A program made the position numbers and the translations under genes. A model generated the notes under the pieces. The model had not been told where the DNA came from, did not search any database, and saw only the letters and a list, made by a program, of their open reading frames with translations. Shown piece by piece: positions 2,138 to 52,451 of a stretch of DNA of 64,000 nucleotides. Origin of the DNA: a virus; IMG/VR virus record IMGVR_UViG_3300043446_004500, positions 1 to 64,000 of that record; one strand, given 5' to 3'. Every line of letters starts with the position of its first letter. The first letter of the stretch is position 1.

Positions 2138-4249
2138 ATGGTTTGGTCTAAAGATTATAAAAGATCAATTGATTGCGATAGTCCTAAGGGGTTTTCTCAA
2201 CGTGCTCATTGTGCTGCTCGTAGAAAAAGATCAAAGGGTGAAGAGACCAAATCAAAATCACCATTTAATGAAATGCATCAAGTAAAGTCACATAAATCAG
2301 TTGAAAGTATTGCAAAGAAACATCGTCTAGAAGTTTCTTTTGTAAAAAAGCAACTTGAAATGGGAATTCCTATTGAACATGAGCATACAAAGGATAAAGA
2401 TCTTGCAACTGATATAGCACTTCAACATCTTGATGAAATTCCAGATTATTATACTCGTTTGAAAAGGATGGAGTCTGATGCTAAAAAGCATCATAAAAAG
2501 TTCAAGGATGTAAAAGAAGCATTAGATGGAAAAACTCCAAGAGATCCCGATTATTCTTTAAAAGATTGGTTTAAGGGGTGGGTTCAAACTGGTGGAAAAT
2601 ATGATGGTAAACCTTGTGCTCGTCAACCAGGACAAACAACTAAACCATATTGCAGAGATGCTGATGTTCGTGCTTCTATGAGTAAAGATGAAAGGAATAA
2701 AAGAGCTGCTAAAAAACGTAAAGAAGATCCAAATCCAGATAGATCGGGAGATGCAAAAATTGTGACACAGGAAGAATACATTCAAGAAAAAAAAGGTGAA
2801 AAAGATGCTTGTTATCATAAAGTAAAAAGTAGGTATAAAATTTGGCCCAGTGCGTATGCATCTGGAGCATTGGTCAAATGTCGTGAAGTTGGTGCTTCCA
2901 ATTGGGGAACTAAATCAGAGGATGTTGGTGATTCATCATTGGCAGACTTAGATTCTCCAGTTCATATGCCTCCAATTCATGGAGTGCATGTTGATTATGA
3001 AAAGAGGTATTGTTCAAAGTGTCAAAAAGAAGAATTGAGAAGTGAGTGCAAATATGGACCAAAATACTGGGATATCTATTCTATTCCTACCAAATTAAAA
3101 GATATGGTTAAAACAGAAGAAAAAGACCACGAGTATTCAATGGCAAGATCAGAACTATCTACTATTGATAATGCAGTAAAAAGATTAAGAAAAAGATTAA
3201 AAGGTGAGGGTAATATTGAGGCATGGGTACAATCAAAAATTACCAAAGCAGCAGATTATATTGATACTGCAGCAGATTATATGGAAAGTGGTGAGCATGA
3301 TGTTGATGAAGGTGTAAGTTTTGATGTAACACACACTTCAGCAGATGTAAGAAAATCACAAAGAGCAAAGAAAATTGCAAACCTAGCACAGAGGGGTGTG
3401 GGTGGTGAAAAGTCTACTGCTGCTCGTATGTCGGGGGTATCCCTACCATCAATTAAAAAAGAAGAAAAACTTGTTGATAAGATTGTAGATGAAATGAAGT
3501 GTTGGCCTGGATACAAAAAGAAGGGAACTCAAAAACTTTTTGGTAAGAAGTATAATCGTTGTGTAAAAGCAGAGGATGTGTCCCTTGAAGATGTAAATGG
3601 AAATACTTTTGCAGAAGTAGTTGATTTAATCAAACCAGAACCAATTAAGGGATTTAAGTCACAAGTTGACGAAGCAACCAGAATGCAAGCACAAACTGGC
3701 AATGTGATTATGGTTACTCTTATGTGGAGAGGTAAGTATTATTCACTTAAGATGTTTTTCCCTCAAGTTAAACTTCCAACACGTCAAGATATTAATGATG
3801 AGTTGCAAAAAGTTTATCCGGGTTCAAAAGTAGTTTATCATTCAGTTTCCGAAATTCAACCAGGACAACCTCTTATTCAAGTATGTGGACCTCAAGGTGG
3901 TAGTTCTGCAAAACCAGGACCTAATAGAAATTATGTAAAACCTATGGGAGAAGAAGTTGAAATTGATGAATCAGTTAGATTGGATAAATCAAAAATGAAG
4001 TGTAATAAACCAAAAGCACAAGCAGTAGGAGATTCTCTTACAGGAAAATCACATGTTGTTAAGGCATGTTCTGGAGGAGAGGAGAAGATTATTCGTTTTG
4101 GACAAAGAGGAGTAAAAGGTTCTCCCAAAAAGAAAGGTGAATCTAAAGCATATGCAATGCGTCGTCATAAGTTTAAAACAAGACACGCAGAGAATATTGC
4201 TAAAGGTCCAATGTCCGCAGCTTATTGGGCAAATAAAGTTAAGTGGTAA
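2138..4249 (+). CDS. Multi-module basic hypothetical protein (includes a DUF5661-like EHEH/HLDE.PDYY module); putative virion-internal polyprotein
   Basis: 703 aa; late promoter at 2107; about 10 short modules separated by x-x-E junctions. Confidence 0.6.
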   Translation: MVWSKDYKRSIDCDSPKGFSQRAHCAARRKRSKGEETKSKSPFNEMHQVKSHKSVESIAKKHRLEVSFVKKQLEMGIPIEHEHTKDKDLATDIALQHLDEIPDYYTRLKRMESDAKKHHKKFKDVKEALDGKTPRDPDYSLKDWFKGWVQTGGKYDGKPCARQPGQTTKPYCRDADVRASMSKDERNKRAAKKRKEDPNPDRSGDAKIVTQEEYIQEKKGEKDACYHKVKSRYKIWPSAYASGALVKCREVGASNWGTKSEDVGDSSLADLDSPVHMPPIHGVHVDYEKRYCSKCQKEELRSECKYGPKYWDIYSIPTKLKDMVKTEEKDHEYSMARSELSTIDNAVKRLRKRLKGEGNIEAWVQSKITKAADYIDTAADYMESGEHDVDEGVSFDVTHTSADVRKSQRAKKIANLAQRGVGGEKSTAARMSGVSLPSIKKEEKLVDKIVDEMKCWPGYKKKGTQKLFGKKYNRCVKAEDVSLEDVNGNTFAEVVDLIKPEPIKGFKSQVDEATRMQAQTGNVIMVTLMWRGKYYSLKMFFPQVKLPTRQDINDELQKVYPGSKVVYHSVSEIQPGQPLIQVCGPQGGSSAKPGPNRNYVKPMGEEVEIDESVRLDKSKMKCNKPKAQAVGDSLTGKSHVVKACSGGEEKIIRFGQRGVKGSPKKKGESKAYAMRRHKFKTRHAENIAKGPMSAAYWANKVKW

Positions 4250-4339
4250 AAGTTTATGCTTTAGTAATGGATTATAATCATCAAACTGGAAAATTTAGAG
4301 CAAGCAATTTTATACTTAAAAAATACAGGTTAATTTATT

Positions 4340-5989
4340 ATGTCAAATGATGTATATCTTGGAAATCCGTTACTAAAAAGAGCAAATACTCCCATTGAGT
4401 TTACGCAAGAACAAATTATTGAATTTGTGAAGTGTAAAGATGATCCGGTTTATTTTGCAAATAATTATGTAAAAATTGTAACTCTGGATCATGGTCTCCA
4501 GACATTTAAACCATATCATTTCCAAGAAAAGTTAATCAACAACTTCCACAAGCACAGATTTAATATCTGCAAGATGCCTCGTCAGACAGGTAAATCTACA
4601 ACTGTGGTTTCTTTTCTTTTACACTATGCAGTTTTCAATGATAATGTAAATATTGGTATTCTTGCAAACAAAGCAGCAACCGCAAGAGAACTTTTAGACA
4701 GATTACAAACTGCATATGAGAATCTTCCCAAATGGATGCAACAGGGTATCGTATCTTGGAACAAAGGTTCTCTTGAACTTGAGAACGGAAGTAAGATCTT
4801 GGCTGCTTCTACTTCTGCTTCTGCAGTTCGTGGTATGTCATTCAATATTCTATTTTTGGACGAATTTGCGTTCGTACCTAACCACATTGCAGATTCTTTC
4901 TTTGCTTCAGTATATCCAACAATCACTTCAGGTAAAAACACAAAGGTAATTATTGTATCTACTCCACATGGTATGAATCACTTCTACCGCATGTGGCATG
5001 ATGCGGAGAAGGGTAAAAATGAATATGTATTCACTGATGTTCACTGGAGTGAAGTTCCAGGTCGTGATGAGGAGTGGAAAAAACAAACAATCTCAAACAC
5101 TTCAGAACAACAGTTCAAGGTTGAGTTTGAATGCGAATTCTTAGGATCAGTTGATACTTTGATTGCACCATCAAAACTTAGAGCACTTGTTTACGATAAT
5201 CCTAAGATCAGCAGTGGTGGTTTAGATGTTTATGAGGATCCAATTGAGAATCATGATTACTTAGCTACTGTTGACGTTGCAAGAGGGGTTGGTAACGATT
5301 ATTCTGCGTTCACTGTAGTTGATATAACAACCTTTCCGCATAAAGTAGTTGCAAAGTATAGAAATAATGAAATTAAACCAATGCTTTTTCCAAGTATTAT
5401 TGTAGACGTTGTAAAAAACTACAATAATGCCTATATTTTGTGCGAAGTAAATGATGTTGGTGATCAGGTAGCATCAATTATACATTATGATCTTGAGTAT
5501 AACAATCTTTTGATGTGCTCTATGAGAGGTAGAGCAGGTCAAATTGTTGGTCAAGGATTTTCTGGAAAGAAAACTCAGTTGGGAGTAAAGATGTCCAAAA
5601 CTGTTAAAAAAGTTGGATGTCTTAATCTTAAAACGATGATTGAAGAGAATAAACTTATTTTCAATGATTATGATATTATGAGTGAGTTAACAACGTTCAT
5701 TCAAAAGCACAATTCATTTGAGGCAGAAGAAGGTTGCAACGATGACCTTGCAATGTGCTTGGTAATTTATGCATGGTTAGTTGCTCAAGATTATTTTAAA
5801 GAGCTTACAGACCAAGATGTAAGAAAGAAATTATATGAAGAACAAAAAAATCAAATTGAACAAGATATGTCTCCATTTGGGTTTATTAACGATGGATTGG
5901 ATGATAATAGTTTTGTAGATAACAGTGGAGATAGATGGTATACTGATGAATATGGAGATCGTGCTTATATGTGGGAGTACTTGTCCTAA
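4340..5989 (+). CDS. gp17: Terminase large subunit
   Basis: PRQTGKSTT Walker A, LFLDEFAF Walker B, C-terminal nuclease (DVARG, DDLAM). Confidence 0.97.
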   Translation: MSNDVYLGNPLLKRANTPIEFTQEQIIEFVKCKDDPVYFANNYVKIVTLDHGLQTFKPYHFQEKLINNFHKHRFNICKMPRQTGKSTTVVSFLLHYAVFNDNVNIGILANKAATARELLDRLQTAYENLPKWMQQGIVSWNKGSLELENGSKILAASTSASAVRGMSFNILFLDEFAFVPNHIADSFFASVYPTITSGKNTKVIIVSTPHGMNHFYRMWHDAEKGKNEYVFTDVHWSEVPGRDEEWKKQTISNTSEQQFKVEFECEFLGSVDTLIAPSKLRALVYDNPKISSGGLDVYEDPIENHDYLATVDVARGVGNDYSAFTVVDITTFPHKVVAKYRNNEIKPMLFPSIIVDVVKNYNNAYILCEVNDVGDQVASIIHYDLEYNNLLMCSMRGRAGQIVGQGFSGKKTQLGVKMSKTVKKVGCLNLKTMIEENKLIFNDYDIMSELTTFIQKHNSFEAEEGCNDDLAMCLVIYAWLVAQDYFKELTDQDVRKKLYEEQKNQIEQDMSPFGFINDGLDDNSFVDNSGDRWYTDEYGDRAYMWEYLS

Positions 5990-9209: not shown

Positions 9210-10898
9210 ATGGCAAAACTTTTTGGTTTTTCAATTGAAGATAACGAACCATTATCACCAAATGTTGTTTCCCCCGTTCCTCCCAATAAAGAGGACGGGG
9301 TTGACCATTATTTGAGTAGTGGTTTTTTTGGTTCGTATGTAGATATTGAAGGTGTTTATAGAACAGAATTTGATCTTATTAAAAGATACAGAGAAATGGC
9401 ACTTCATCCGGAATGTGATAGTGCTATTGAAGATATTGTTAACGAAGCAATTGTAGCAGACACTAACGACAGTCCTGTTCAAATTGATTTGGACAATCTA
9501 AATGCTAGTGATGGTATTAAAAAGAAAATCAGACAAGAATTTAAACATATTTTAGAATTATTAGATTTTGATAAGAAGGCACACGAAATCTATAGAAATT
9601 GGTATGTTGATGGTAGACTTTATTACCATAAATTAATTGATCTCAAAAATCCTGAGGCAGGAATCCAGGAATTGAGGTATATTGACGCAATGAAAATGCG
9701 TTATGTGCGTCAAGGAAAGAAAAAAGACGCAAACAAATATAACGTTTCAAATAGAATGGTTGATAATCCTATGGATTATGACTTTCCTGAGATTGAAGAA
9801 TATTTCATCTATGAACCAAAAATGACCTACCCAACAGGAACACCTGCTCCTGGAACGATGGGTGGTTCAAACTCCGGGATCCGAATGACTAAGGATTCTA
9901 TCACATATTGCACTTCAGGTCTCGTAGATAGAAATAAAGGATCAACTCTTTCTTATCTCCATAAAGCAATTAAATCTCTCAATCAACTTCGTATGATTGA
10001 GGATTCACTCGTAATTTACAGATTGTCTCGTGCTCCAGAACGTAGAATTTTCTACATTGATGTAGGTAATCTACCAAAAGTAAAAGCAGAACAATATCTT
10101 CGTGATGTTATGATGCGTTATCGCAATAAACTTGTATATGATGCAAACACTGGTGAAATCCGTGATGATCGTAAGTTTATGGCAATGCTTGAAGACTTTT
10201 GGCTTCCAAGAAGAGAAGGTGGTAGAGGAACTGAGATCTCCACACTTCCTGGTGGTCAGAATCTTGGAGAAATTACTGATATTGAATACTTCAAGAAGAA
10301 ACTGTATCGTTCTCTAAACGTTCCTCCCTCAAGAATGGATGGAGAAGGTGGTTTTAATCTTGGACGTTCATCGGAAATTCTTCGTGATGAAGTTAAGTTC
10401 AGCAAGTTTGTTGCAAGATTGAGAAAGAGATTTTCATATATGTTTAGTGATATGTTGAGAACGCAATTGATTCTCAAGAACATTATCACTCCAGAAGATT
10501 GGCAGCAAATGGATGAGCATATTCAATATGATTTCCTATATGACAACCACTTTGCAGAACTAAAAGATGCAGAGTTGCTAAATGAAAGATTGTCAATGGT
10601 ACAAATTGCAGAACCTTATGTTGGAAAATATTTCTCTCAAGATTATGTAAGACGTAAAATTCTTCGTCAAACCGATATTGAAATAATTGAGCAGGATGCA
10701 ATTATTAAAAAAGAAATTAAAGATGGGGTTATTCCAGATCCAAGCATTCCTATTGATCCTGCAACTGGTTTACCTCTAGATCAAACTTCTCAAATGGATC
10801 TTGGTCAACCAGTAATGGAACCGGATCTGGGAGCAGACAATAAAGCAACTCAAATAAATGCAAAAGCAGCTGAGATGCCCAAAGGTGGTGAAATATAA
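9210..10898 (+). CDS. gp20: Portal protein
   Basis: YRLSRAPERRIFYIDVGNLP, EDFWLPRREGGRGTEI. Confidence 0.97.
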   Translation: MAKLFGFSIEDNEPLSPNVVSPVPPNKEDGVDHYLSSGFFGSYVDIEGVYRTEFDLIKRYREMALHPECDSAIEDIVNEAIVADTNDSPVQIDLDNLNASDGIKKKIRQEFKHILELLDFDKKAHEIYRNWYVDGRLYYHKLIDLKNPEAGIQELRYIDAMKMRYVRQGKKKDANKYNVSNRMVDNPMDYDFPEIEEYFIYEPKMTYPTGTPAPGTMGGSNSGIRMTKDSITYCTSGLVDRNKGSTLSYLHKAIKSLNQLRMIEDSLVIYRLSRAPERRIFYIDVGNLPKVKAEQYLRDVMMRYRNKLVYDANTGEIRDDRKFMAMLEDFWLPRREGGRGTEISTLPGGQNLGEITDIEYFKKKLYRSLNVPPSRMDGEGGFNLGRSSEILRDEVKFSKFVARLRKRFSYMFSDMLRTQLILKNIITPEDWQQMDEHIQYDFLYDNHFAELKDAELLNERLSMVQIAEPYVGKYFSQDYVRRKILRQTDIEIIEQDAIIKKEIKDGVIPDPSIPIDPATGLPLDQTSQMDLGQPVMEPDLGADNKATQINAKAAEMPKGGEI

Positions 10899-10929
10899 AT
10901 AAAGACGATTATTAATTTATTTTGCACTT

Positions 10930-11091
10930 ATGGACGATTTACTGGATATGATTGCTACTGACGAATCACCTTCTCAAATTAGTGATAAAATCAAAGAACT
11001 TTTATTTGCAAAAGCATCTGAAAAGATTGATGATTTTCGTCCTGCAGTAGCAATGGATATGTTTGGACAAATTAATCAAGAAGAGGAATGA
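10930..11091 (+). CDS. Small acidic protein (53 aa), positional equivalent of the gp67 prohead core protein; not in ORF track
   Basis: MDDLLDMIATDESPSQISDKIKELLFAKASEKID...; late promoter at 10894. Confidence 0.6.
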   Translation: MDDLLDMIATDESPSQISDKIKELLFAKASEKIDDFRPAVAMDMFGQINQEEE

Positions 11092-11092
11092 A

Positions 11093-11413
11093 ATGAAATC
11101 TTATAAGCAATTTATTTCCGAATCGGTTAATATTGCTGGCGATTTCACGGGAAATCTTTATATCAACTCACAATCAGAACAACCACAGCAAGTTGGTGAA
11201 GAATATGTTGCTGATGTAATGTGGAATGGAAGTCTATATCGTTTAGAATTAGTTACTAAAACTGGAATTCCATCGACAAGAGAACTTGGTGAACAACTTC
11301 AGTCTGATTACCCTGGAGCAGTTGTTCATCAAATCTATCCAGTTACAGAAAAGAATTTAAATATCAAAAACGCACAGAGATACCACCCATCCAAGTTAGA
11401 ATGGATTGATTGA
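11093..11413 (+). CDS. Hypothetical head-associated protein with capsid-targeting-like N-terminus MKSYKQFISE
   Basis: Probable true start at ATG 11093; shares a W-x-G...LQ..YPG module with ORF 2138. Confidence 0.6.
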   Translation: MKSYKQFISESVNIAGDFTGNLYINSQSEQPQQVGEEYVADVMWNGSLYRLELVTKTGIPSTRELGEQLQSDYPGAVVHQIYPVTEKNLNIKNAQRYHPSKLEWID

Positions 11414-12881: not shown

Positions 12882-13433
12882 ATGGCTCATAGACCAGTTG
12901 GAACTGGATCCTCTGTTGCATTTACTGCAGGAGCTGCATCCACATCATCCTCATTTTCAGTTCAATCAAGTGTTTTGAGAGTGGTTGCTGTCGGAGGCGC
13001 TGCTCATATTGCAGTTGGAGCAACTCCTTCAGCAACTATTGCTGATTATTATGTTCCTGCAAATGGGACAGCAACTCTTGCACTTACTAAAGCATCAAAT
13101 CGTGTTGTAGGTGTTACGACTGGAACAACAACTATAGTTACTGTTCCAGAAGGAACTCAAGTTCCATTTGGTGTTGGAGATTATGTTTCTTTAACTGTGT
13201 CTGGTCAATCTTATTATAATTTTACTCATCAACAAGTTTTATCAGTTAATACAACATCGGGAGTAGGTGGTTATTTTCAAACCAGAATGACAGTCAATTA
13301 CAATTCAACCGGAATTGCTACCGCATTTTCTTCTGCGGATGCACACGTTATTAACTCAAACAAAGTTTCTGCATATGGTGTAGGATCTGGATCTGTTTAT
13401 TACCAACAAGTTCAAATTACAGGAGACGCATGA
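12882..13433 (+). CDS. Hypothetical structural protein
   Basis: Late promoter at 12851; Ser/Thr/Val-rich; precedes gp21. Confidence 0.5.
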   Translation: MAHRPVGTGSSVAFTAGAASTSSSFSVQSSVLRVVAVGGAAHIAVGATPSATIADYYVPANGTATLALTKASNRVVGVTTGTTTIVTVPEGTQVPFGVGDYVSLTVSGQSYYNFTHQQVLSVNTTSGVGGYFQTRMTVNYNSTGIATAFSSADAHVINSNKVSAYGVGSGSVYYQQVQITGDA

Positions 13434-14083
13434 TGAAACTCATCACAGAAGAAATTGAATCAGTAGAAGTTATTACTGAGGAAAAAAACGGTAAAAAAAC
13501 TCTATACATTCAAGGACCATTCCTTCAAACCGAACAAAAAAATCGTAATAATAGAGTATATCGTAAATCTATAATGGAACGTGAGGTAAAAAGATATACA
13601 GAACAATATATTTGCAAAGGTCGTGCTTTAGGTGAACTTGGGCACCCAGATGGTCCAACTGTAAATCTTGATAGGGTTTCCCATATGATTGTTTCCCTTG
13701 AACAACGTGGAAATGATTTTATTGGTAAAGCACAAATTCTTTCTACACCTATGGGTAAGATTGCGGAGTCACTTCTCAAAGAAGGAGTAACTCTTGGAGT
13801 TTCTTCTCGTGGTCTTGGTTCTACGAGACAACATCCAGATGGATATGTGGAAGTTGGTGAAGATTTTATGCTTGCAACTGCTGCCGATATTGTTGCTGAT
13901 CCTTCTGCACCTGATGCTTTTGTTCAGGGAATTATGGAAGGAAAGGAATGGTGCTGGGAAGGTGGAATGCTAAGAGAAAAAGTAGCAGAAAACACCAAAC
14001 ACAAAATAAATACATTTGTTGATCAAGGTATACTTGAAGAATATAAACTATCACTTTTCAATGAGTTTTTAAATTCATTGTAA
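13430..14083 (+). CDS. gp21: Prohead core protease
   Basis: MKLITE start, ALGELGHP, GVSSRGLGS, DIVADPSAPDAFV. Confidence 0.95.
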   Translation: MMKLITEEIESVEVITEEKNGKKTLYIQGPFLQTEQKNRNNRVYRKSIMEREVKRYTEQYICKGRALGELGHPDGPTVNLDRVSHMIVSLEQRGNDFIGKAQILSTPMGKIAESLLKEGVTLGVSSRGLGSTRQHPDGYVEVGEDFMLATAADIVADPSAPDAFVQGIMEGKEWCWEGGMLREKVAENTKHKINTFVDQGILEEYKLSLFNEFLNSL

Positions 14084-14139: not shown

Positions 14140-15303
14140 ATGTCTCGTGGAGATTTACAAGAAATGGAAGTAGGCACTAAGCAATCCAGAACCGCTGTGA
14201 ATGCAAATGCAAAAGCAGCGGACGCAATGCCAAAATTAGCAGCAGGTGCTGTTGCAGGTCAGACTGGTAGCTGGGAAGATTTAGGTGGTCCAGATCCTTC
14301 TAACTATCGCCCAGATGATGATTCAGCAAAACTGAAAACACCCGGATCAACACTTAAGGCAGTTAAGAATGTTGTGAATAAAGGTGCTAGTGCAGCAATG
14401 CCAATGCAGAGTCTTGCTTCTGGTGCTGTAAAAGAAGATGAAGATCTTGAATATGATGAAGACGAAGAACTTCTAGAAGCTAAGGAAGAAGAGGAGGAAG
14501 AGGAAGAAGAGGAAGAAGGAGGCAAAAAGAAAAAGTCTGATAAGGAAGAAGAGGAAGAAGAAGAGGAAATGGAGGAAGAGTTTAGCATTGAGGAAGATGT
14601 TAATGCTCTTCTAGAGGGTGAGAATCTTTCTGAGGAATTCCAAGAGAAGGCACGTACCATCTTTGAAGCTGCTCTTCGTTCCAAAGTTTCTCAAATTCAA
14701 GAAACAATTGAAGAGCAGTATGCTCTTGCTCTTGCAGAAGAAGTTGAAGAAATTAAGACCGAACTTTCCGAAAGAGTAGATTCATATCTTGAGTATGTTG
14801 CCGACGAGTGGATGCAAGAAAATGCACTCGTCATTGAACAAGGTCTTAAGACCGAAATGACCGAATCATTCCTTCAAGGAATGAGAGGTCTTTTTGAAGA
14901 ACATTATGTATCAATCCCTGAAGATAAATATGATGTGCTTGAGAGCATGGTAGAAAAACTTGATGAAATGGAGACAAAACTCAACGAGCAGATCGAGAAA
15001 AATGTTTCCCTAAACAAGCGTCTCGCAGAGTCGGTTGCTGATGGAATCTTTGAACAGGTCTCTGAGGGCCTTGCTGCTACTCAGAAAGACAAGCTCGCTT
15101 CACTTGCCGAGAGTGTTGAGTTTGAAAGTGAAGAAGAATATCGTGAAAAACTGGAGACTTTGAAGGAATCATATTTCCCTTCAAGAGTAGTATCTCCTTC
15201 AACTAAATCTGATACTCTTTCTGAGGGAGTAAGCATTGCACATGAGTCATACTCACCAGCAATGTCTGCTTATCTTAAGAGCCTCTCAGCATTTAGTAAA
15301 TAA
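14140..15303 (+). CDS. gp22: Prohead core scaffold protein
   Basis: Very acidic; LSEEF.EKA.TIFEAA, YLEYVADEWM; lies between gp21 and gp23. Confidence 0.93.
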   Translation: MSRGDLQEMEVGTKQSRTAVNANAKAADAMPKLAAGAVAGQTGSWEDLGGPDPSNYRPDDDSAKLKTPGSTLKAVKNVVNKGASAAMPMQSLASGAVKEDEDLEYDEDEELLEAKEEEEEEEEEEEGGKKKKSDKEEEEEEEEMEEEFSIEEDVNALLEGENLSEEFQEKARTIFEAALRSKVSQIQETIEEQYALALAEEVEEIKTELSERVDSYLEYVADEWMQENALVIEQGLKTEMTESFLQGMRGLFEEHYVSIPEDKYDVLESMVEKLDEMETKLNEQIEKNVSLNKRLAESVADGIFEQVSEGLAATQKDKLASLAESVEFESEEEYREKLETLKESYFPSRVVSPSTKSDTLSEGVSIAHESYSPAMSAYLKSLSAFSK

Positions 15304-15360: not shown

Positions 15361-16788
15361 ATGTTCCATTCCGAGCATCTGCAGGAAAAGTGGGCACCTC
15401 TACTTGACTATCAGGGCATTGACCCTATCAAAGATTCTCATCGTAGAGCTGTAACCGCAGTCCTGCTAGAAAACCAAGAAAGATTTTTAAGAGAGCAATC
15501 CTCATTTGAGCATGGCTCAATGGGTATGCTTATGGAAACCCCAACCAACGCAGGTAATGCTGCTGGTGCTTCAGGTGGTTTCTCAGGTAGTGCAGCTGCT
15601 GCAGGTCCTACCGCAGGTTTTGACCCAGTACTGATTTCACTTATTCGTCGTTCAATGCCTAACCTGGTCGCATATGACCTGGCTGGCGTTCAACCAATGA
15701 GTGGTCCTACTGGACTTATCTTCGCAATGCGTTCACGTTACACCAACCAGAGTGGTACTGAAACCTTCTACAATGAAGTAGATACTGCATTCTCAGGTCA
15801 GGATTCATCCTTTGGACTTGCTGGTTTTGGTAGCACTGCTGCTGGTATCGGTACTACAACTCAGGCTGGAACTAATCCATCAGTTCTAAACCCTGTTGGT
15901 GGTGCTGGCGATCAGACCGCATATAACGTTGGTCAGGGTATGGTAACTGGAGATTCTGAGAATCTCGGTGCTTCCGGCCATGACTTTAACCAGATGGCAT
16001 TCTCAATTGAGAAGGTCACTGTAACTGCAAAGTCAAGAGCACTCAAGGCTGAGTACAGCTTAGAACTCGCACAAGACCTAAAAGCAATTCATGGTCTGAA
16101 TGCAGAGGCTGAGCTTGCTAACATCCTCAGCTCTGAGATTCTTGCTGAAATCAACCGTGAGGTCATCAGAACCATCTACAAGGTTGCTGAGCAAGGTGCT
16201 GTTCAAAACGTAGCAACTCCTGGAATCTTTGACCTTGATGTTGACTCTAACGGTCGTTGGTCAGTTGAGAAGTTCAAGGGTCTACTCTTCCAAATTGAGA
16301 GAGATGCAAACGCAATTGCACAAAGAACTCGTAGAGGAAAGGGTAACATCATCATGTGCTCTGCTGACGTTGCTTCAGCACTGACCATGGCTGGTGTTCT
16401 AGATTACACCCCTGCACTCAATGCAAACCTTCAGGTAGATGATACCGGCAATACCTTTGCTGGTACTCTAATGGGCAAGTATCGTGTATACATTGACCCA
16501 TATGCTGCAAACCTCACCGCAGGTAATGCAACTCCTGGTAACCAGTACTACGTTGTTGGTTATAAGGGTTCCAGCCCATATGATGCTGGTCTCTTCTATT
16601 GCCCATACGTTCCTCTCCAAATGGTACGTGCCGTTGGTGAGAACACCTTCCAGCCCAAGATCGGCTTTAAGACCCGTTATGGTCTCGTTGCAAACCCATT
16701 TGCAGAGGGAACCACTCAGGGTCTTGGTGCTCTCAAAGTTGACAGCAACCGTTACTACAGAAGAGTTGCAGTTAAGAACCTTATGTGA
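15361..16788 (+). CDS. gp23: Major capsid protein
   Basis: GVQPMSGPTGLIFAMR, SRALKAEYSLELAQDLKAIHGL, FQPKIGFKTRYG. Confidence 0.98.
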   Translation: MFHSEHLQEKWAPLLDYQGIDPIKDSHRRAVTAVLLENQERFLREQSSFEHGSMGMLMETPTNAGNAAGASGGFSGSAAAAGPTAGFDPVLISLIRRSMPNLVAYDLAGVQPMSGPTGLIFAMRSRYTNQSGTETFYNEVDTAFSGQDSSFGLAGFGSTAAGIGTTTQAGTNPSVLNPVGGAGDQTAYNVGQGMVTGDSENLGASGHDFNQMAFSIEKVTVTAKSRALKAEYSLELAQDLKAIHGLNAEAELANILSSEILAEINREVIRTIYKVAEQGAVQNVATPGIFDLDVDSNGRWSVEKFKGLLFQIERDANAIAQRTRRGKGNIIMCSADVASALTMAGVLDYTPALNANLQVDDTGNTFAGTLMGKYRVYIDPYAANLTAGNATPGNQYYVVGYKGSSPYDAGLFYCPYVPLQMVRAVGENTFQPKIGFKTRYGLVANPFAEGTTQGLGALKVDSNRYYRRVAVKNLM

Positions 16789-23582: not shown

Positions 23583-24668
23583 ATGGAAAGTAAGGAAATT
23601 CGAGGATTGATGGAAGCATATGTTTCAGTTTATGCTCCACAGCAAGAACTTAATGAAGAAGTTACAATTGCTGCTCATTATTTCTATGAAATGGGTTTGA
23701 ACGAAGATGGTGTTGATATTTTAATTGAAGAACTTGGTGTAGAAGAATTTGCCGAGTTTGTTTATGATATTTCTGAAGAGTATGTTTTAGCAGAAGCAAG
23801 AGCAGGTGGTGCAAGAATTGAACCTGTAACTGCAAAAGGACAAAAGTTTAAATCTGGAAAACCAACTGGCAAATCTCTTGCTAGACTTCGTGCTCAAAAA
23901 GAAGCAAGAAAATCCGCAGAAGAAAAAGCATCCGCATCAAAACCATCTGGATTGAAGGCATCCCTACAAAGACAATCTGCAGTTGCTACTGCTGCAAAGA
24001 AACAACCAAAGAAACCAGGTATTTTTGATCGTGTTGTAAGTGCTGTTGATAGAGGAATTGCAAGACATAATGCTGCTATGGGTGAACTGCAGAAAATGAA
24101 AGCAGCAACTGCCGTAACTGCAGGTAAAGTTAAAAAAGCTGCTGGACAATTTAAAAAGGGTTTTACTGGTGAAGAAATAGAACTTCAGGGTTATGTTGCA
24201 TCAAAGAAACTTGAAGAGGGCCATGATAGCAGAATGGGAAGAGGTGAAATGGGTGAACCAAAAGAAACTCAATACCCAAAAGTTGATAAGAAGCAGTATG
24301 ATAAGGATATGGATTTCTGGAAATCAAGAATTAGAACAGCTACAGCTCAGTTTAGATTGAAGAAAAGGGGTAAAGTCCCTAAAAAGGGTGGTAAGGATAT
24401 GTTTGAGCATATCCTAGAACACCTAGTTGCCGAAGGTTATGCGGATACAAATGAGGCAGCAATAGCTATTATGGCAAACATGAGTGAAGAATGGAAGCAG
24501 AGTATTGTTGAAGAAACCAAGAGAACAGAATATCTTCAAAAAAAATTTAATAAAGAAAATCAAAGAAAATCTGGTTCTGCTCATACTTACATTCCGGGAA
24601 AACAAAACACTGGACAAGCGTTAATAAAATCAAGAGAGTCTGAAAGACATATGCGTGGTGAGAATTGA
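23583..24668 (+). CDS. EAY/GYA-family protein, copy 1 (putative capsid-internal)
   Basis: Late promoter at 23555; N-terminal KEIRGLMEAY; conserved domain EHLVAEGYADTNEAAIAIMANMSEEW. Confidence 0.6.
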   Translation: MESKEIRGLMEAYVSVYAPQQELNEEVTIAAHYFYEMGLNEDGVDILIEELGVEEFAEFVYDISEEYVLAEARAGGARIEPVTAKGQKFKSGKPTGKSLARLRAQKEARKSAEEKASASKPSGLKASLQRQSAVATAAKKQPKKPGIFDRVVSAVDRGIARHNAAMGELQKMKAATAVTAGKVKKAAGQFKKGFTGEEIELQGYVASKKLEEGHDSRMGRGEMGEPKETQYPKVDKKQYDKDMDFWKSRIRTATAQFRLKKRGKVPKKGGKDMFEHILEHLVAEGYADTNEAAIAIMANMSEEWKQSIVEETKRTEYLQKKFNKENQRKSGSAHTYIPGKQNTGQALIKSRESERHMRGEN

Positions 24669-32914: not shown

Positions 32915-33076
32915 ATGAAAACTTTCCAGGAATTTGTTTCTATTATTAAAGAAATGAAAGGTGATTATGGATCTGGAGTTAAACCATCAAAACCAAAATG
33001 TGGTTCAGAAGGAACCACATCATATGCGATGCTTCCTGGAAAGAAAGTTTGCAAGTTTCACAGAAAACGTGAGTGA
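32915..33076 (+). CDS. 53-aa basic protein with capsid-targeting-like start MKTFQEFVSIIKE; not in ORF track
   Basis: Translated manually; CTAAATA late-like box at 32899. Confidence 0.55.
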   Translation: MKTFQEFVSIIKEMKGDYGSGVKPSKPKCGSEGTTSYAMLPGKKVCKFHRKRE

Positions 33077-38669: not shown

Positions 38670-39335
38670 ATGAAAGTAAAGATTTATTTGATTACCAACA
38701 CAGCAGTCAATCCACATATGTATTATGTTGGATTGACTAAAAATGAATTAAATAGAAGATTACAAGAACATATTACTCTTGGAAGGCACGAAGGAAATAA
38801 ACTTCTGTCTGATGCTATTATTGAATATGGTAAAAGAAACTTTACTATTGAGGTAATAGAAGAAGTTGATGAGAGTGAAGCAAGAATAAAAGAAGATTAT
38901 TATATTCGCAAATATAAATCTCATTATAGAGATGGGTGTGGATATAATATGAAATATGAAACTTGCAATCATGAGAAACACTATCACGGAGCAAATCAAG
39001 AACTAATAGAAGAGAATATTAGAAATGGTAGGGTGTGGAACTATGGAATAAGTTTTTCTACACAATCAAAAGAAAAAATGAGAAAAACTAAAAAACATAG
39101 ATACTCTCTTGGTCTTTATACTAAATTTAATACAAACCATACACAAGAAACAAAAGATAAAATATCAGAAAGTAAAAGAGGACAAAAACTTACAGAGGAA
39201 CATAAAAATAATATTTCTAAATCTTCTGTTGGTAGAACTTGGATTTATAATCCAGAGTTAGATGAAAGAAAGTTTGTAAAACAGGATGAGTTGGAAATGT
39301 TCTTGGAAAGTGGTTGGAAGAAAGGTAGGTTATAA
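38670..39335 (+). CDS. Free-standing GIY-YIG homing endonuclease with NUMOD3-like repeats
   Basis: IYLITN...YYVGLT, R..EH, E..YI, GYN; HTQETKDKISES and LTEEHKNNISKS. Confidence 0.88.
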   Translation: MKVKIYLITNTAVNPHMYYVGLTKNELNRRLQEHITLGRHEGNKLLSDAIIEYGKRNFTIEVIEEVDESEARIKEDYYIRKYKSHYRDGCGYNMKYETCNHEKHYHGANQELIEENIRNGRVWNYGISFSTQSKEKMRKTKKHRYSLGLYTKFNTNHTQETKDKISESKRGQKLTEEHKNNISKSSVGRTWIYNPELDERKFVKQDELEMFLESGWKKGRL

Positions 39336-39360: not shown

Positions 39361-39804
39361 ATGGACGCACAAAATTTTCGTGGGATTCAAGAAGCATATA
39401 TGGAAGTTGTTAGTAACAATAATGAGTTGAGTGAAATGTCTTATAAAAAACTTCCTGTCGGCAAAATGATGAGAAAAGTTGAATATAGGGCAGAAAGAGA
39501 AGCAGATACGAGAGCAGATGCAGAAACAGCAGACACAACTGCTTTTATGAGTCATAATCGGGCATTAAGAGCACACAAACGCGCAGAAAGAAATAAAGAA
39601 AGAAGCAATAGAATGATAAATGTTGCTGATACTCATAGTAAGAAAGCAGCAAAGGCAAAATCAAAACTTAAAAAAGAACAAGTAGACCTATACGACATCA
39701 TTCTTTCGCACCTTCTTGATGAAGGATATGCTGAAACACCAGAAGCAGCAGAAGCAATTATGGTGAATATGAGTGAAGAGTGGAGAGATAGTATTATTGG
39801 TTGA
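39361..39804 (+). CDS. EAY/GYA-family protein, copy 2, inside the fractured gp41 locus
   Basis: Late promoter at 39331; FRGIQEAY; SHLLDEGYAETPEAAEAIMVNMSEEW. Confidence 0.65.
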   Translation: MDAQNFRGIQEAYMEVVSNNNELSEMSYKKLPVGKMMRKVEYRAEREADTRADAETADTTAFMSHNRALRAHKRAERNKERSNRMINVADTHSKKAAKAKSKLKKEQVDLYDIILSHLLDEGYAETPEAAEAIMVNMSEEWRDSIIG

Positions 39805-39884: not shown

Positions 39885-39995
39885 ATGATGCTGAAAAAAA
39901 TTCTAAAAATTGAAGAACTTGATGAAAGAGAACTTATAGATATTGAAGTGTCTGGAAATCATTTGTTCTATGCGAATGCTATTCTCACACATAAT
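39885..39995 (+). mobile_element. Split intein C-fragment (37 aa), Gp41-1 type
   Basis: Ends in His-Asn followed by Ser+1. Confidence 0.93.
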
Positions 39996-41468: not shown

Positions 41469-42635
41469 ATGGCGATGGATTCAAAGGAAATTAGAGGTTT
41501 GTGCGAAGCATATTCTGCCGTTTATAATGAAGATCTTAGAGATGAATTAGAAACTTTTTCAATCGAGGAAGATCTCTCAATCATTGATGATCTAAGTGAT
41601 AATGAGTTGGATTTAGTAATGGAAAATATTTTTCTCTCAGGAGAATTTGATATTGATGAGTGCTTTGAATCTTTAGATCTTGTTCTCAGTGAAGCAACAG
41701 TAACAAGTTCTGAGGATAGACCTTCTGGTTCTGCAAGAGTTACTTCAAGTGCAGAAAGACCAAGTAGAGCAAAGAGAACTTCAGAAAGACAAAAACAAGT
41801 TAGAGTTGGTAGAATTGCTCAAGCAGCTCAACGTGCTGGAGAAAGGGTAAAGTCGGGTGTTGTAGGTAAAGCAAAGGCAGCAGGTGCAAAGGTTGCTTCT
41901 GCTACTCAAAAGGTAAAGGGATTTTTGGGTAAGGTTGGTCGTGCTGCTGCGGCAGGAGCATCTGCTGCTAGAAAAGAATTCGGTGGTGAGGCAGGAAGAG
42001 AAGCAAAGGCAAGAAAAACTGGTCGTCAAATGAGACGAGCAGCAAGAAAACAAGCATCTGCTGCTAGAGCAAAAGATACTAGTGCTTTCCAAAAACCAAA
42101 AGCACCTGTTGGAACTTCAGCAAATCCCAGAATTGGTCAACCTGGAAAAGAAAGACCAGCACTTCCTGCAGCAAAGACTAAAACAGTTTCTGTAGATAGA
42201 AGAAAAGCAGCAGCTGCTAAACTTGCTTCTGCAGCTGCTGGATCTGGACCATCCGGATCAGTTCAGCAAGGACAACCTGCTGGAACTTTTAAAACCAAAA
42301 AGTCTAGAATGCAAGCACAAAAAAGAGAGGCAAGACTTACTGCAGCAGAGAGTTTTGAACTTCTGGATATTTTAGTTCAAGATATGATTAATGATGGATA
42401 TGTAAACAGTGTTCATGAAGCATACGATTTAATTGAGAATTTGGATGATACTCAAACTATCAATTTAGTTGAATCATATCTAATTGAAGAGGTAGAAACT
42501 CTAGATCTTTATGATGTAGTTCTTGAGCATCTGATTGAGAATGGATATGCTGAAACTGAAGAGGCAGCAGAAGTCATCATGGTAAACATGAGTGAAGAGT
42601 GGAGAGAAGAAATTCTACGTAAAAATAATGGATGA
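41469..42635 (+). CDS. EAY/GYA-family protein, copy 3
   Basis: Late promoter at 41440; KEIRGLCEAY; EHLIENGYAETEEAAEVIMVNMSEEW; K/R/A-rich middle. Confidence 0.65.
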   Translation: MAMDSKEIRGLCEAYSAVYNEDLRDELETFSIEEDLSIIDDLSDNELDLVMENIFLSGEFDIDECFESLDLVLSEATVTSSEDRPSGSARVTSSAERPSRAKRTSERQKQVRVGRIAQAAQRAGERVKSGVVGKAKAAGAKVASATQKVKGFLGKVGRAAAAGASAARKEFGGEAGREAKARKTGRQMRRAARKQASAARAKDTSAFQKPKAPVGTSANPRIGQPGKERPALPAAKTKTVSVDRRKAAAAKLASAAAGSGPSGSVQQGQPAGTFKTKKSRMQAQKREARLTAAESFELLDILVQDMINDGYVNSVHEAYDLIENLDDTQTINLVESYLIEEVETLDLYDVVLEHLIENGYAETEEAAEVIMVNMSEEWREEILRKNNG

Positions 42636-42741: not shown

Positions 42742-44034
42742 ATGAAGAGTTTTTTCTACTTTCTATCAGAAGCAAAGCAGTCACGGGCTTCAATGCAGGC
42801 AAAGAAGCTTGGTCTGCGAGGAGACGGTCATGGTGGATGGGTTGACCGTAGTGGAAAAACTGTAGCAAGAACAGAAGATGGTAAACTGCAGTTTATTGAT
42901 GGTAGAGAAGCAGCAGCACAAGAAACTCAAGCAAAGCAACCAACTGCTGCAACACCTATCCCAACACAAGCACCTAAACAGCAAGCACCGGTTACTCCTA
43001 CTCCGCAAGTACAGAAAGCACCTTCAGATGAAGAGAAACCAGAAGAGGGTGGAACAGTTACTATAGTTTTTGGACGTTTCAATCCACCTACAGTTGGACA
43101 TGAAAAACTTTTAAAATCTGCAAAGAGAATTTCTGCAGGAAGTGATATTAAGATATATCCATCAAGAACACAGGATTCTAAAAAGAATCCTCTGGAAGCA
43201 TCAACAAAAATATCTTATATGAGAAAGATGTTCCCAGAATTTAAAGATAATATTATTAACGATCCTGATATGAAAACAATTTTTAATGTGTTAACCACTG
43301 CATATGAAGATGGATATTCAAATGTTAACATTGTAGTAGGTTCTGATCGTCAAGCAGAGTTTGAAAATCTTGCTCAGAAGTATAATGGAGATCTTTACAC
43401 TTTTGATTTGATTCGTGTTGTATCTGCTGGTGTTCGTGATGCAGATGCTGAAGGTGTGGAAGGAATGTCGGCATCTAAAATGAGAAAAGCAGTTATGGAC
43501 AATGACTTTGAATCTTTCCGTAGAGGAACTCCTAAGACATTAGATGATGGAGATGCACAGACTTTATTTGATGCTGTTCGTCAGGGAATGAAAGTTAAGA
43601 AAACTAAAGTTAAAAAGGAAAGTTATAATGTTTGGGAAATTGCTCCAAAGTGTGACATGAAAAATCTTCGTGAAAATTATGTAAGGGGTAAAATTTTTAG
43701 AATTGGAGATAAGGTTGAAAACTTAAATACTGGTTTGATTGGTGAGGTAATGCGTAGAGGAACTAATCATTTAATCTGTGTAACTGAAGAAGGTTATATG
43801 TTTAAATCTTGGATTAAAGATTTGATGGAATATACTGAAGTAAAAGTGGATAGTCCAATGAGAGATAAAACTCATCCTACTACTTTAGTCGGTACAAAAG
43901 GAACATTTATAAATTATGCGTCAAAAACTCCAGGTGCAATTGGTACTGGAAAACAAAATTTGCAAATGGGAGGAAAGGCTTATGGTATCAATTTCATAAA
44001 TAAGTATAAGGCAAAGAAAGTAAGTACTTATTAA
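42742..44034 (+). CDS. HIGH-superfamily nucleotidyltransferase (cyanophage cytidylyltransferase-like) with capsid-targeting-like N-terminus
   Basis: FGRFNPPTVGHEKL, VGSDR, MSASKMR; start MKSFFYFLSE; late promoter at 42693. Confidence 0.8.
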   Translation: MKSFFYFLSEAKQSRASMQAKKLGLRGDGHGGWVDRSGKTVARTEDGKLQFIDGREAAAQETQAKQPTAATPIPTQAPKQQAPVTPTPQVQKAPSDEEKPEEGGTVTIVFGRFNPPTVGHEKLLKSAKRISAGSDIKIYPSRTQDSKKNPLEASTKISYMRKMFPEFKDNIINDPDMKTIFNVLTTAYEDGYSNVNIVVGSDRQAEFENLAQKYNGDLYTFDLIRVVSAGVRDADAEGVEGMSASKMRKAVMDNDFESFRRGTPKTLDDGDAQTLFDAVRQGMKVKKTKVKKESYNVWEIAPKCDMKNLRENYVRGKIFRIGDKVENLNTGLIGEVMRRGTNHLICVTEEGYMFKSWIKDLMEYTEVKVDSPMRDKTHPTTLVGTKGTFINYASKTPGAIGTGKQNLQMGGKAYGINFINKYKAKKVSTY

Positions 44035-44035
44035 G

Positions 44036-45451
44036 ATGTCTATTAATCCTCTGAACGATATTTCTAAAGTTTATTTGGAGCAGGTTGCTGAATCGGCAGT
44101 TCCTGGTAAACCTGCAGAAAAACTTGGTGCTGTGACTGCTATTCCGCAAGAGGAACGTGATGCTGCAAGAAAAAGAGCACTTGCAAAAGCAGCTGCTATA
44201 AGAGCAAAGAAAGGTATTAAAGAAGCAACAAAAGCAAAACCAGATTATTTGGATTTTGATGGAGATGGTAATACGAAAGAGTCAATGAAAAAAGCTTTAA
44301 GAGATAAAGCAAAACAAAAAGTACAAGAAGCAAAAAAACCAAATGATGGTAATTTAGCAAACAACTATCCTCCATATGACAAAGTTACTAGAGGAGATAT
44401 AATTGCTGGCGCTCTAGGTCAAGATCAAATGGGAGGTAAAAAAAAGAAAAAATCAGTAAAAGAAGGATATTCAAATTGGAGAGAGGAACTTTCCGAAGTA
44501 ATAGAAGTAGTTGGAAAGGATAAGAATGATGAAAAAATAATAGAGAAAAAAGTCAGTAATAAAATTAAAATTAATCCAAGCATACGTGAAGCAGTAGAAA
44601 ATCTTGGTGGAATTCTTCTAGAAATGGAAGAACTTGATGAGAAAGCTTATAGAAATCTAGGTGTCGGTAGGGTTGAAAGAGTAAGTAGTGGTTCTTATGT
44701 TGCGCCAGAAACAACAGGTGCTGCTGCTAAGAAAAAATCTGCAGCTGCTGCGTCAAAATCAAAACCAGAAAAACCAGTTACTGCAATTACAACTGTTGAG
44801 AAACCTAAACCAAAAGCAAAACCAGAAAAACCAGTTGCGGTAAATGTTGAGAAACCTCAACCAAAAGAAGAAGGAAGAAGAGCAAGAAGAAGAAGGAAGA
44901 GTAGTCCTTCCTATCCCGAAATCAAAGCAGGTATTGAAGCAAGAGAGGCAAAGAAAAAAAGAAGAGGAAAGAAAAAAAGAACTGATAAGTTAGATGATTT
45001 ACTTGCTTCAATAAGAAGTGAAAAAAATGAAAGTTTTCAACTTTCAGAAAAGGCAGAGAGTGAACAGCAACAAAAACTTTTTGGACTTGCTCTTTCAGTA
45101 AAAAGAGGACAAACATCAAGATCTGAAGTAAGTGATGCTGTTCTTAAAATTGCTGATGGTATGAGTGAGAAAAAGATTCGTGATTTTGCTAAAACTAAGC
45201 ACGAAGGACTTCCTAAAAAAGTTGAAACAAAGGAAGAAGCAATTCAATATGCTTTGATTGATAGAATGACAAAAAAGATTGCAGAGCAAGCAGTAGAAAC
45301 ACCAAAAAAAACTCCACAACAGAAAAACATTAGTCAACTTAATCAAGTTTTGACTGCAAAGAAAACTGTTAATGATGCTCAAAAGAAACTTGATCAAGCT
45401 TTAAAAACTGCTGCTCAAAGAAACCTTGATTTACAATCTATCTCTTCATAA
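44036..45451 (+). CDS. Multi-module basic hypothetical protein (includes DxDGDG and DUF3008-like modules)
   Basis: PDYLDFDGDGNTKESMKKA; AESEQQQKLFGLALSVKRG...DFAKTKHEGLP; late promoter at 43995. Confidence 0.6.
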   Translation: MSINPLNDISKVYLEQVAESAVPGKPAEKLGAVTAIPQEERDAARKRALAKAAAIRAKKGIKEATKAKPDYLDFDGDGNTKESMKKALRDKAKQKVQEAKKPNDGNLANNYPPYDKVTRGDIIAGALGQDQMGGKKKKKSVKEGYSNWREELSEVIEVVGKDKNDEKIIEKKVSNKIKINPSIREAVENLGGILLEMEELDEKAYRNLGVGRVERVSSGSYVAPETTGAAAKKKSAAAASKSKPEKPVTAITTVEKPKPKAKPEKPVAVNVEKPQPKEEGRRARRRRKSSPSYPEIKAGIEAREAKKKRRGKKKRTDKLDDLLASIRSEKNESFQLSEKAESEQQQKLFGLALSVKRGQTSRSEVSDAVLKIADGMSEKKIRDFAKTKHEGLPKKVETKEEAIQYALIDRMTKKIAEQAVETPKKTPQQKNISQLNQVLTAKKTVNDAQKKLDQALKTAAQRNLDLQSISS

Positions 45452-51283: not shown

Positions 51284-51973
51284 ATGGAAGGTCGTATTTA
51301 CAAAATAACAAATCAATCCAATGGTAAGTTCTATGTTGGTATGACCAGAAAGAAATTGAAATATAGATTTAATAATCATTGTTATGATGCATTAATTAGA
51401 AACTCAAATTCTTATTTTCATAAAGCAATAAGAAAATATGGTAAAGAAAATTTTATCATTGAAGAAATTGAGGTGTGTGAAAAAAATTTGCCCGATAGAG
51501 AAGTATTTTGGATTTCTAAATTAAAACCTGATTATAACCAAACTATTGGTGGAGATAATGGTATTCTTGGATTTAGACATACCGAAGAAACTAAAAACTT
51601 TCTTTCCAAAAAAAGAAAGGGAAAATATACTGGAGAAAAAAATCCTTTTTATGGGCAGCATCATACACAAAAAACAAAAGATAAACTAAGTCAAATGAGA
51701 AAAGGACAACCATCACCTTGCGGATTTGCTGGAAAATCACATAAAGAGGAAAGTAAATCTAAAACTTCTCAAACACTTAAAAATAATCCAAATGTAAAAA
51801 GAACCAAAGTATTTCAGTATGATATTGAAGGAAACTTTTTAAGGGAGTTCCAATCTATTAGTGATGCTTCTAAATTCGTAGGAACAACTCCTTCTAATAT
51901 AAAATATACCTGCGAAGGAAAATTTAATCATTGTAAAGGATATAAATGGAGTTATGAAAAACTAAATACCTAA
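51284..51973 (+). CDS. Free-standing GIY-YIG homing endonuclease (NUMOD3 repeats + NUMOD1/HTH)
   Basis: GRIYKITN...FYVGMT, REVFWI, YN..GG; HTEETK, HTQKTK; VFQYD.EG.F..EF.SI..A. Confidence 0.9.
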   Translation: MEGRIYKITNQSNGKFYVGMTRKKLKYRFNNHCYDALIRNSNSYFHKAIRKYGKENFIIEEIEVCEKNLPDREVFWISKLKPDYNQTIGGDNGILGFRHTEETKNFLSKKRKGKYTGEKNPFYGQHHTQKTKDKLSQMRKGQPSPCGFAGKSHKEESKSKTSQTLKNNPNVKRTKVFQYDIEGNFLREFQSISDASKFVGTTPSNIKYTCEGKFNHCKGYKWSYEKLNT

Positions 51974-51986
51974 AAACAAATAAGAA

Positions 51987-52451
51987 ATGAAAACATTTCA
52001 AGAGTTTATTGCAGAAGCAAAAAGAATAAAATTTTATACATTACATCACGGCACTTCTCCTGAAGCAAAAAAATCAATTCAACAATCTGGATTTAGAAAT
52101 TCTGGTTCTGCTGGTGCTTATGGTCCTGGAGTATATACTTCTACTAATAGAAGAGTAGCAAATGTACACGGGAGTAGTACAATAACTATGAGAGTTCCTG
52201 CAAAGAAAGTAAAAACAATGGATATTAAACCTAAATCTCAATCTGGAACTAATGCATTAGATAAAGGTGAAACTGCAGTTAGAATACCAAATGCAGGAAC
52301 AAGAACAAGTGCATATAGAAATCTAAAAGGAAAAAAACATTTTGTTGTAGTTGATAAAGATGTAGCAAATAAAAATGTTGTAAAAAATCCTTCACCTACA
52401 CTTAAATCTGGTAAAGACAAAAGAACAAAAACACAACCAAAGAAAAAATAA
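51987..52451 (+). CDS. PARP-like ADP-ribosyltransferase-fold protein with T4 capsid-targeting sequence
   Basis: MKTFQEFIAE|A; LHHGTS...I...GF.......YGPGVY......A. Confidence 0.65.
   Translation: MKTFQEFIAEAKRIKFYTLHHGTSPEAKKSIQQSGFRNSGSAGAYGPGVYTSTNRRVANVHGSSTITMRVPAKKVKTMDIKPKSQSGTNALDKGETAVRIPNAGTRTSAYRNLKGKKHFVVVDKDVANKNVVKNPSPTLKSGKDKRTKTQPKKK

Follow-up and report, generated by a model that had tools for sequence, protein, structure and literature searches.

Cyanomyoviruses are among the most abundant marine viruses, and we know of no account of what their heads contain besides DNA. This question is raised by positions 2138 to 52451 of a 64,000-nucleotide stretch (hereafter the window; positions 1 to 64,000 of IMG/VR record IMGVR_UViG_3300043446_004500, a record of 153,677 bases with an estimated completeness of 73%), in which scattered genes of a low-GC T4-like cyanomyovirus open with one of two short leaders, label A and label B. 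A first-pass annotation had read these leaders as addresses under which a suite of enzymes and basic peptides is loaded into the head. We consider it probable that this cyanomyovirus kept the T4 head-loading system and that the labels load scattered late cargo. A short N-terminal amphipathic leader, M-K-x-F-x-x-F-[LI]-x-E in the case of label A, would dock a late-made protein on the scaffolding core during prohead assembly; a gp21-type protease would then cleave past the Glu of [LI]-x-E; and the mature, mostly basic protein would remain in the head with the DNA and probably enter the cell alongside it, as the T4 internal proteins (IPs) and Alt do. Docking, cleavage, head retention and injection are steps that we infer here, and the proposed suite, a possible metallopeptidase aside, is supported wherever it is testable in silico, namely in the leader, the protease, the scaffold, the ADP-ribosyltransferase (ART) fold of one product and the relatives found in phage S-SCSM1.

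Label A and the T4 capsid-targeting sequence

Label A, M-K-[ST]-[FY]-x-x-F-[ILV] with a Glu further on, was scanned as the core M-K-[ST]-[FY]-x-x-F-[ILVM]-[SA], which has four matches in the six-frame translation of the window, each opening an open reading frame (ORF; 11093, 32915, 42742 and 51987, genes being named here by their first position and all lying on the + strand), where chance would give about 1e-4 among 100 N-termini. Label B, [LI]-x-E-A-Y at residues 9-13, was scanned as R-G-[LI]-x-E-A-Y and has three matches (23583, 39361 and 41469), each within the first 15 residues, with about 0.0016 expected over all 19,112 coding residues. The N-termini quoted in the first-pass annotation are all present at their positions, and its view that the labels exceed background holds, both being confined to N-termini and far above chance frequency. 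Its count of at least ten labelled late genes falls to eight, four with label A, three with label B and one with a loose leader (44036), as 2138 and 40925 have late promoters and no N-terminal label.

Judged by its residues, label A is the T4 tag itself. In the T4 record, IPII and IPIII share the leader M-K-T-Y-Q-E-F-I-A-E and IPI has a longer one terminating in I-T-E, in agreement with the T4 leaders that had been quoted for comparison. The leader of 51987 differs from that of IPII and IPIII at a single residue, and its gene start has 92.7% nucleotide identity over 41 nucleotides to an internal-head-protein gene of coliphage ESCO47, three internal head proteins of which begin with the IPII/IPIII leader or one substitution away from it. 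The leaders of 11093 and 42742 keep M1, K2, an aromatic residue 4, F7, [LI]8 and E10, and 32915 has an IPI-like longer leader.

Such identity between cyanophage and coliphage gene starts also fits an explanation in which the conserved 5' ends act as nucleic acid, as a translation-initiation or regulatory element or a recombination hot spot, with the peptide a by-product, and the location of cargo genes in known hot spots, adjoining homing endonucleases, points the same way. We nevertheless regard this explanation as very improbable, because it is particular positions of the protein that are conserved (residues 1, 2, 4, 7, 10 and 11 fixed, 8 nearly so) and these fall on one hydrophobic helix face, orthologues use different codons, and the fixed positions are those shown by T4 mutagenesis to be important for the protein. 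The comparison of 80 orthologues of the NMNAT-like protein 42742, which retain its leader, makes the pattern explicit: after redundancy removal, M1, K2, F4, F7, E10 and A11 are invariant in all 48 sequences and position 8 is nearly fixed (L8 in 45 of the 48), with positions 3, 5, 6 and 9 variable. Amber-suppressor work in T4 assigned residues 4 and 7 to targeting and residues 8 and 10 to processing (reviewed in PMC9026906), and the fixed leader positions, as aligned, agree with the residues that matter there. These residues lie on one face of a helix that is predicted in the models of both 51987 and 11093. Members of the 51987 family hardly differ in their first 13 residues, and beyond the closest relatives their bodies share 36-51% identity.

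The tag as a peptide address is further supported by its recurrence on unrelated proteins. A degenerate DNA pattern of the tag searched against IMG/VR retrieved at least 119 loci, each listed match lying at an ORF start or near a 5' end, whereas a decoy pattern with the same codons in reverse order gave no match in IMG/VR; T-even IPs were among those retrieved and served as positive controls. Among the matches listed, to which the following counts refer, 114 complete tagged ORFs fall into at least 31 unrelated payload clusters in T4-like contigs, the largest being the 11093 family with 67 of the 114. The payloads include Acb1 (E 2e-18), SAM lyase (E 1e-17), a glucosaminidase, a DPBB lytic transglycosylase, HiPIP and DUF6321 as well as a homologue of 51987. 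Proteins common with the window genome occur at 108 of the 119 loci, and the contig with the Acb1 payload belongs to a more distant T4-like phage. Many payload genes occupy slots that also hold genes in the window, between terS and terL, gp46 and cobT, regA/hsp20 and gp43, nrdA and nrdB, and gp23 and gp3; two of them, gp16-gp17 and the stretch beyond gp46, had been counted as hot spots by Sullivan et al. (PMC3037559).

Some of these loci are of interest in themselves. At locus L080 (contig G001), from the distant marine T4-like phage, the Acb1 anti-CBASS domain stands directly behind label A; the 57B (Acb1) proteins of T4 and ESCO47, which adjoin IP genes, are without the tag. In four small label-A proteins of 113-149 residues (L027, L051, L058 and L109), the residues next to the tag imitate the N-terminus of mature cyanophage gp23 (P-T-N-[SA]-V-G...).

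Label-A products and their late-promoter motifs

The probable label-A cargo comprises an ART-fold protein (51987), a nucleotidyltransferase (42742), a basic peptide (32915) and a conserved protein of 106 residues (11093). The 430-residue product of 42742 (42742..44034) is, on profile and motif evidence, a nucleotidyltransferase of the NMNAT/cytidylyltransferase type, as had been proposed: it matches phrog_395 at E 3e-105, carries T-V-G-H after the first strand as its (T/H)-x-G-H nucleotide-binding motif, and is 59% identical to the annotated NMNAT of S-SCSM1, ORF91, which itself begins with a label-A variant. Its Pfam CTP_transf_like score of 20.6 bits is slightly below the 21-bit cut-off.

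The ART fold proposed for 51987 (51987..52451; 154 residues, with a leader, an ART-fold domain and a basic tail) likewise stood, with Foldseek and VIA-align agreeing on the predicted model (pLDDT 75.6). The top 50 Foldseek matches in the PDB are all ARTs, exotoxin A domain III and PARPs being the best at E 4e-5. VIA-align placed the model on the diphtheria toxin catalytic domain at Z 7.9 (root-mean-square deviation 3.3 over 107 residues) and found 34 chains at Z of at least 5, including the anti-CRISPR protein 6kyf at Z 7.3. Part of a cyanophage pre-ejectosome protein also matched, at Z 5.2, which fits weak tblastn matches of 51987 to internal virion proteins of podoviruses. The modelled domain has H-G-T and G-x-Y-x-S-T motifs; as to the catalytic motif (H-Y-E or R-S-E), either H or R occupies the first position in the family, and a Glu common to all members was not found. 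As a separate observation, the C-terminal basic motif R-T-K-T-Q-P-K-K-K of the family is more conserved than the ART body and might, from this pattern, form an additional functional tail, with DNA binding as one conceivable role.

The remaining two label-A genes encode small proteins. In the 53-residue product of 32915 (32915..33076; 65 related loci), a 13-residue leader ending in I-K-E/M (the slash standing at the predicted cut) is conserved across the 29 orthologues read, and the remainder is basic (isoelectric point, pI, 9.9). The product of 11093 (11093..11413) matches phrog_1742 and is modelled (pLDDT 77) as a flexible leader followed by a compact alpha/beta domain at residues 36-106, a domain without a PDB match at Z of 5 or above, the best matches being small alpha/beta proteins. 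A likeness of this domain to the T7 RNA polymerase inhibitor Gp2 (Z 4.2) is weak and non-significant, and we do not rely on it; the domain recurs in large proteins, namely S-SCSM1 ORF29 and the DUF6321 proteins of S-CAM9 and P-HM1. A complex prediction for 11093 with the gp22 scaffold scored 0.00, giving no answer, and counts neither way.

Late expression is suggested by promoter motifs. The cyanophage late motif NATAAATA (reviewed in PMC2984593) occurs 32 times on the + strand and 3 times on the - strand of the window, and lies 21-49 nucleotides upstream of 2138, 10930, 23583, 39361, 40925, 41469, 42742, 44036 and 51284; of these, 10930 shares an operon with 11093, and 51284 with 51987. TATAAATA has ten sites in the window, all on the + strand and all intergenic. 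They include the late-promoter motif of the 10930-11413 operon, found by motif scan at 10894..10901 on the + strand, and sites at 23555 (for 23583), 39331 (39361), 41440 (41469), 42693 (42742) and 51253 (51284); AATAAATA lies 30 nucleotides upstream of 2138. Among orthologues of 42742, ATAAATA occurs within 60 nucleotides upstream in 72 of 80.

Two label-A genes depart from this pattern, 32915 (at 32899-32905) and 51987 each having CTAAATA in place of NATAAATA. In the orthologues of 32915 (L292-L354), the same promoter position alternates between CTCTAAATA and CTATAAATA, that is, it switches between CTAAATA and TATAAATA among the 29 read, and the late gene gp3 (16858) has CTAAATA, at 16839, as the sole such motif upstream. 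Because the orthologues alternate in this way and gp3 has CTAAATA alone, we accept it as what appears, from these comparisons, to be a working late-promoter variant. The earlier proposal of a late promoter for each labelled gene, its own or its operon's, therefore stands as to the presence of a motif and is qualified for 32915 and 51987, which have the variant.

Label B, the capsid machinery and virion proteins of relatives

The window encodes both the protease and the scaffold families of T4 head assembly, as identified with Pfam. Its gene order runs from gp15, terS, terL, sheath, tube, portal, prohead protease, scaffold and gp23 to replication and recombination genes, up to nrdA and nrdB, and the gp23 proteins of Synechococcus phages S-B43 and S-B05 have 84% identity to the major capsid protein of the window. 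The presumed cutter is a gp21-type prohead protease (13430..14083; Peptidase_S77, E 7e-34), which is followed by a gp22-type scaffold (14140..15303; T4_CASP, E 1e-81) with an L-Q-E site at its N-terminus that is conserved in the 73 orthologues compared. The major capsid protein gp23 (15361..16788) has L-M-E/T at a position matching the T4 gp23 cut, where T4 has L-T-E/A and S-SCSM1 has L-A-E/A.

Label B opens three proteins. The genes 23583, 39361 and 41469 are paralogues with a common leader and an acidic helical module. The 361-residue product of 23583 (23583..24668) has the leader, an acidic module ending in L-A-E/A, a basic middle, a second acidic module ending in I-V-E/E and a basic tail; the 147-residue product of 39361 (39361..39804) has the leader, a basic middle and an acidic C-terminal module; and the 388-residue product of 41469 (41469..42635) has the leader, an acidic region ending in L-S-E/A, a basic middle and two acidic modules. 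The upstream start of 23583 is backed by 111 of 119 homologues. The public gene call there (P0023, 325 residues) begins at Met37 and misses the conserved leader.

The label-B family is found in phages only and has 2143 homologues at E of 0.01 or below. In 111 of the 119 relatives examined, a homology search recovers the looser core [LI]-x-E-A-Y, beginning at residue 9, which makes the Glu residue 11; a strict DNA pattern for K-E-I-R-G-L-x-E-A-Y had no match in IMG/VR, being too narrow. Most of these relatives have a conserved acidic module ending in Y-x-L-T-E, followed by A-R-A-G-G, and the module end L-T-E/A is identical to the T4 gp23 site. Beyond the module lie hypervariable basic regions with many different C-termini, and several relatives have a different sequence immediately past the leader. 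With lower confidence than for label A, the sequences suggest that label B is a second type of leader, carried by modular proteins that join propeptides to basic cargo; most likely, the acidic modules would serve as propeptides or bind the scaffold, and the basic segments would be the internal proteins retained.

Two further large proteins accompany the labelled set. The basic 471-residue product of 44036 (44036..45451) opens with a conserved leader of a third kind, N-D-I-S-x-[VI]-Y-L-E, and carries DUF3008 at its C-terminus. Between terS and terL, 2138 (2138..4249) encodes a basic mosaic protein of 703 residues (pI 9.4) with Pfam and PHROG matches, including DUF5661 and a copy of the phrog_1742 domain; its residues 510-565 resemble the 11093 protein. 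A metallopeptidase had been suggested as possible cargo, and this suggestion was dropped, as no profile match exceeds threshold for 40925 or 2138: the DUF6782 match of 40925 scores 18.1 bits against a cut-off of 27, and the only candidate in 2138 is DUF5661, a domain of unknown function.

Relatives of these proteins are present in virions. The syntenic ORF89-93 and ORF29 of S-SCSM1 are recorded as proteins of the virion on the basis of mass spectrometry, and ORF29, 89, 91, 92 and 93, detected in CsCl-purified virions, are relatives of four window families. Besides ORF91, these are ORF89, which belongs to the label-B family and starts in a label-B-like way, ORF92 and ORF93, both matching 44036, and ORF29, which is related to 2138 (E 2e-32). 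The authors of the S-SCSM1 study drew attention to NMNAT-like proteins in three virion proteomes of cyanophages without proposing a mechanism, and a cytidylyltransferase was found in S-SM1 virions (Sullivan et al., PMC3037559). ORF213 and ORF214, also S-SCSM1 enzymes recorded from the virion, are large hub-cluster proteins of no relevance to label cargo. With the exception of 11093, the predicted mature parts have a pI of 9.1-10.8, against a window median of 5.6.

These results bear on two other explanations. One is that the labelled proteins belong to the ordinary outer structure of the particle (tail, baseplate or capsid decoration) and have shared N-termini unrelated to head loading; several relatives are indeed named merely 'virion protein' in GenBank, and fibre-like genes are among the neighbours. 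We give this explanation hardly any credence in view of the high pI and low-complexity basic composition, the enzymatic nature of the payloads, the identity of the leader to the T4 internal-protein tag and the lack of tail or fibre domains in Pfam or PHROGs. The other is that the labels mark assembly parts of the prohead core (stand-ins for gp67 and gp68, or scaffold accessories) that are cut and expelled during maturation, so that little if anything reaches the host. Consistent with it, 11093 is in the gene 67/68 position beside the portal and protease genes and is acidic past the predicted cut (pI 4.9), its S-SCSM1 orthologue ORF30 (77% identity) is not listed as a virion protein, and acidic helical modules reminiscent of scaffold, with [ILV]-x-E at their bounds, occur in the label-B proteins. 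However, relatives of 42742, 44036, 2138 and a label-B protein were found in mature purified virions, an assembly role is not obvious for the payloads, which are enzymes or basic proteins, and T4 proteins with the same tag are retained and injected; we consider the explanation unlikely.

The acidity of 11093 and the absence of ORF30 from the recorded virion proteins of S-SCSM1 also weigh against the head-loading account that we prefer, and because it is acidic past the predicted cut, 11093 may be a core component rather than cargo. Other points on that side are that the virion proteomics stems from another phage, S-SCSM1; that injection appears to have been demonstrated for T4 alone; that the upstream motif of 32915 and 51987 is only the variant one; that [LI]-x-E is frequent by itself, which leaves cleavage-site arguments weak when taken alone; and that the three label-B copies in the window are paralogous, which makes label B less clearly a free-standing tag than label A.

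The gene directly after the portal gene, 10930 (10930..11091; phrog_14164), encodes an acidic protein of 53 residues in the position of T4 gene 67, a link that rests on position in comparison with the T4 record. We rejected 10930 and 11093 as homologues of T4 gp67 and gp68: there is no detectable similarity, the start of T4 gp68 differs, and only the gene position fits. Cyanophages are without gp67 and gp68 according to a 2010 review.

Relation to known systems

The capsid-targeting tag and a polymorphic set of IPs are textbook features of the T-even phages. We found no paper linking the capsid-targeting sequence to cyanophages in a literature search that left subscription journals outside its scope. 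T4 IPI, IPII and IPIII have the same ten-residue leader, with Glu 10 after [LI]-x (Mullaney and Black, 1996, via PMC9026906 and PMC3012670), and are, as is predicted here, late basic products that go with the same protease and scaffold families; their IPI even offers the parallel to the longer leader of 32915. In contrast, enzymes and mosaic proteins as long as 430 residues make up the payloads described here, their genes are spread over five or more places instead of one or two IP loci, and the cyanophage is known from sequence. T4 Alt is a packaged ADP-ribosyltransferase cut by gp21 at I-T-E (PMC5694885), to which 51987 is alike as an ART-fold protein behind a predicted short propeptide ending in Glu. 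It differs in its length (154 residues, against 682 for Alt), in its leader of the IP type rather than the Alt type and in its fold, which is nearest to the H-Y-E (diphtheria toxin/PARP) group.

T-even phages likewise join a conserved leader to unrelated payloads at their polymorphic IP locus (Repoila et al., 1994, via PMC9026906 and PMC3012670), a polymorphism attributed to an arms race with host defences (PMC9026906, PMC3012670). Here the shuffling spans marine and freshwater T4-like phages, several slots and recognisable enzyme domains. The earlier description of a cyanophage counterpart that is far more modular than T4 should be revised, as the label is the T4 tag itself and the T-even IP loci were already known to be modular, so that the modularity is only partly new. 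The ejection proteins of the giant phages SPN3US and phiKZ, matured by the prohead protease (PMC5694885), are comparable in being numerous head-internal proteins with N-terminal propeptides cut after Glu and in forming paralogue families with identical leaders; what sets them apart is the length of those propeptides, about 100 residues, and an A/S/G-x-E motif. Label B is intermediate between the T4 and giant-phage styles, its acidic modules being about 70 residues long. Internal virion (ejectosome) proteins of the T7-like cyanopodoviruses P60, S-CBP42 and A4 have a weak likeness to 51987 in sequence (E 2e-3) and fold (Z 5.2). There the domain is inside a giant ejection protein, whereas 51987 is small, free-standing and provided with a T4-type tag.

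It is possible, short of probable, that the T4 tag is an address label used throughout the superfamily, from which the proteome that marine and freshwater T4-like phages package and inject could be read at the sequence level, with Acb1, SAM lyase, ART-fold and NMNAT proteins as cargo, and that label B is a second, undescribed loader. If so, counter-defence and takeover enzymes would be delivered ahead of any phage gene expression, and the acidic propeptide modules of label B would bring interchangeable basic peptides into the head. A conserved T4-type tag would offer a simple mechanism for the presence of NMNAT-like enzymes in purified cyanophage particles, and the sequence rule would predict the cargo of uncultured phages, including anti-defence Acb1 and SAM lyase acting before transcription. 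The leaders would also form a natural set for putting foreign proteins into the heads of T4-like phages of hosts other than coli.

Among the neighbouring genes, two paralogous GIY-YIG-type homing endonuclease genes stand directly upstream of labelled genes, each with its own TATAAATA: 38670 (38670..39335, with a NUMOD3 match) precedes 39361, and 51284 (51284..51973) precedes 51987. At locus L096 the endonuclease is 88% identical and nrdB 92% identical, and the ART cargo just 43%. The gp41 helicase in 37289-40307 resembles a fractured gene, for which a paper on 'fractured genes' (PMC2677866) may serve as comparison. Its N-terminal part, of 443 residues, has at its end a Hint/intein N-fragment (a sub-threshold match), and the ORF at 39885-40307 begins with an intein C-fragment followed by the DnaB C-terminus. 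The 1.26-kb gap between the two parts contains the GIY-YIG endonuclease gene and the label-B gene 39361.

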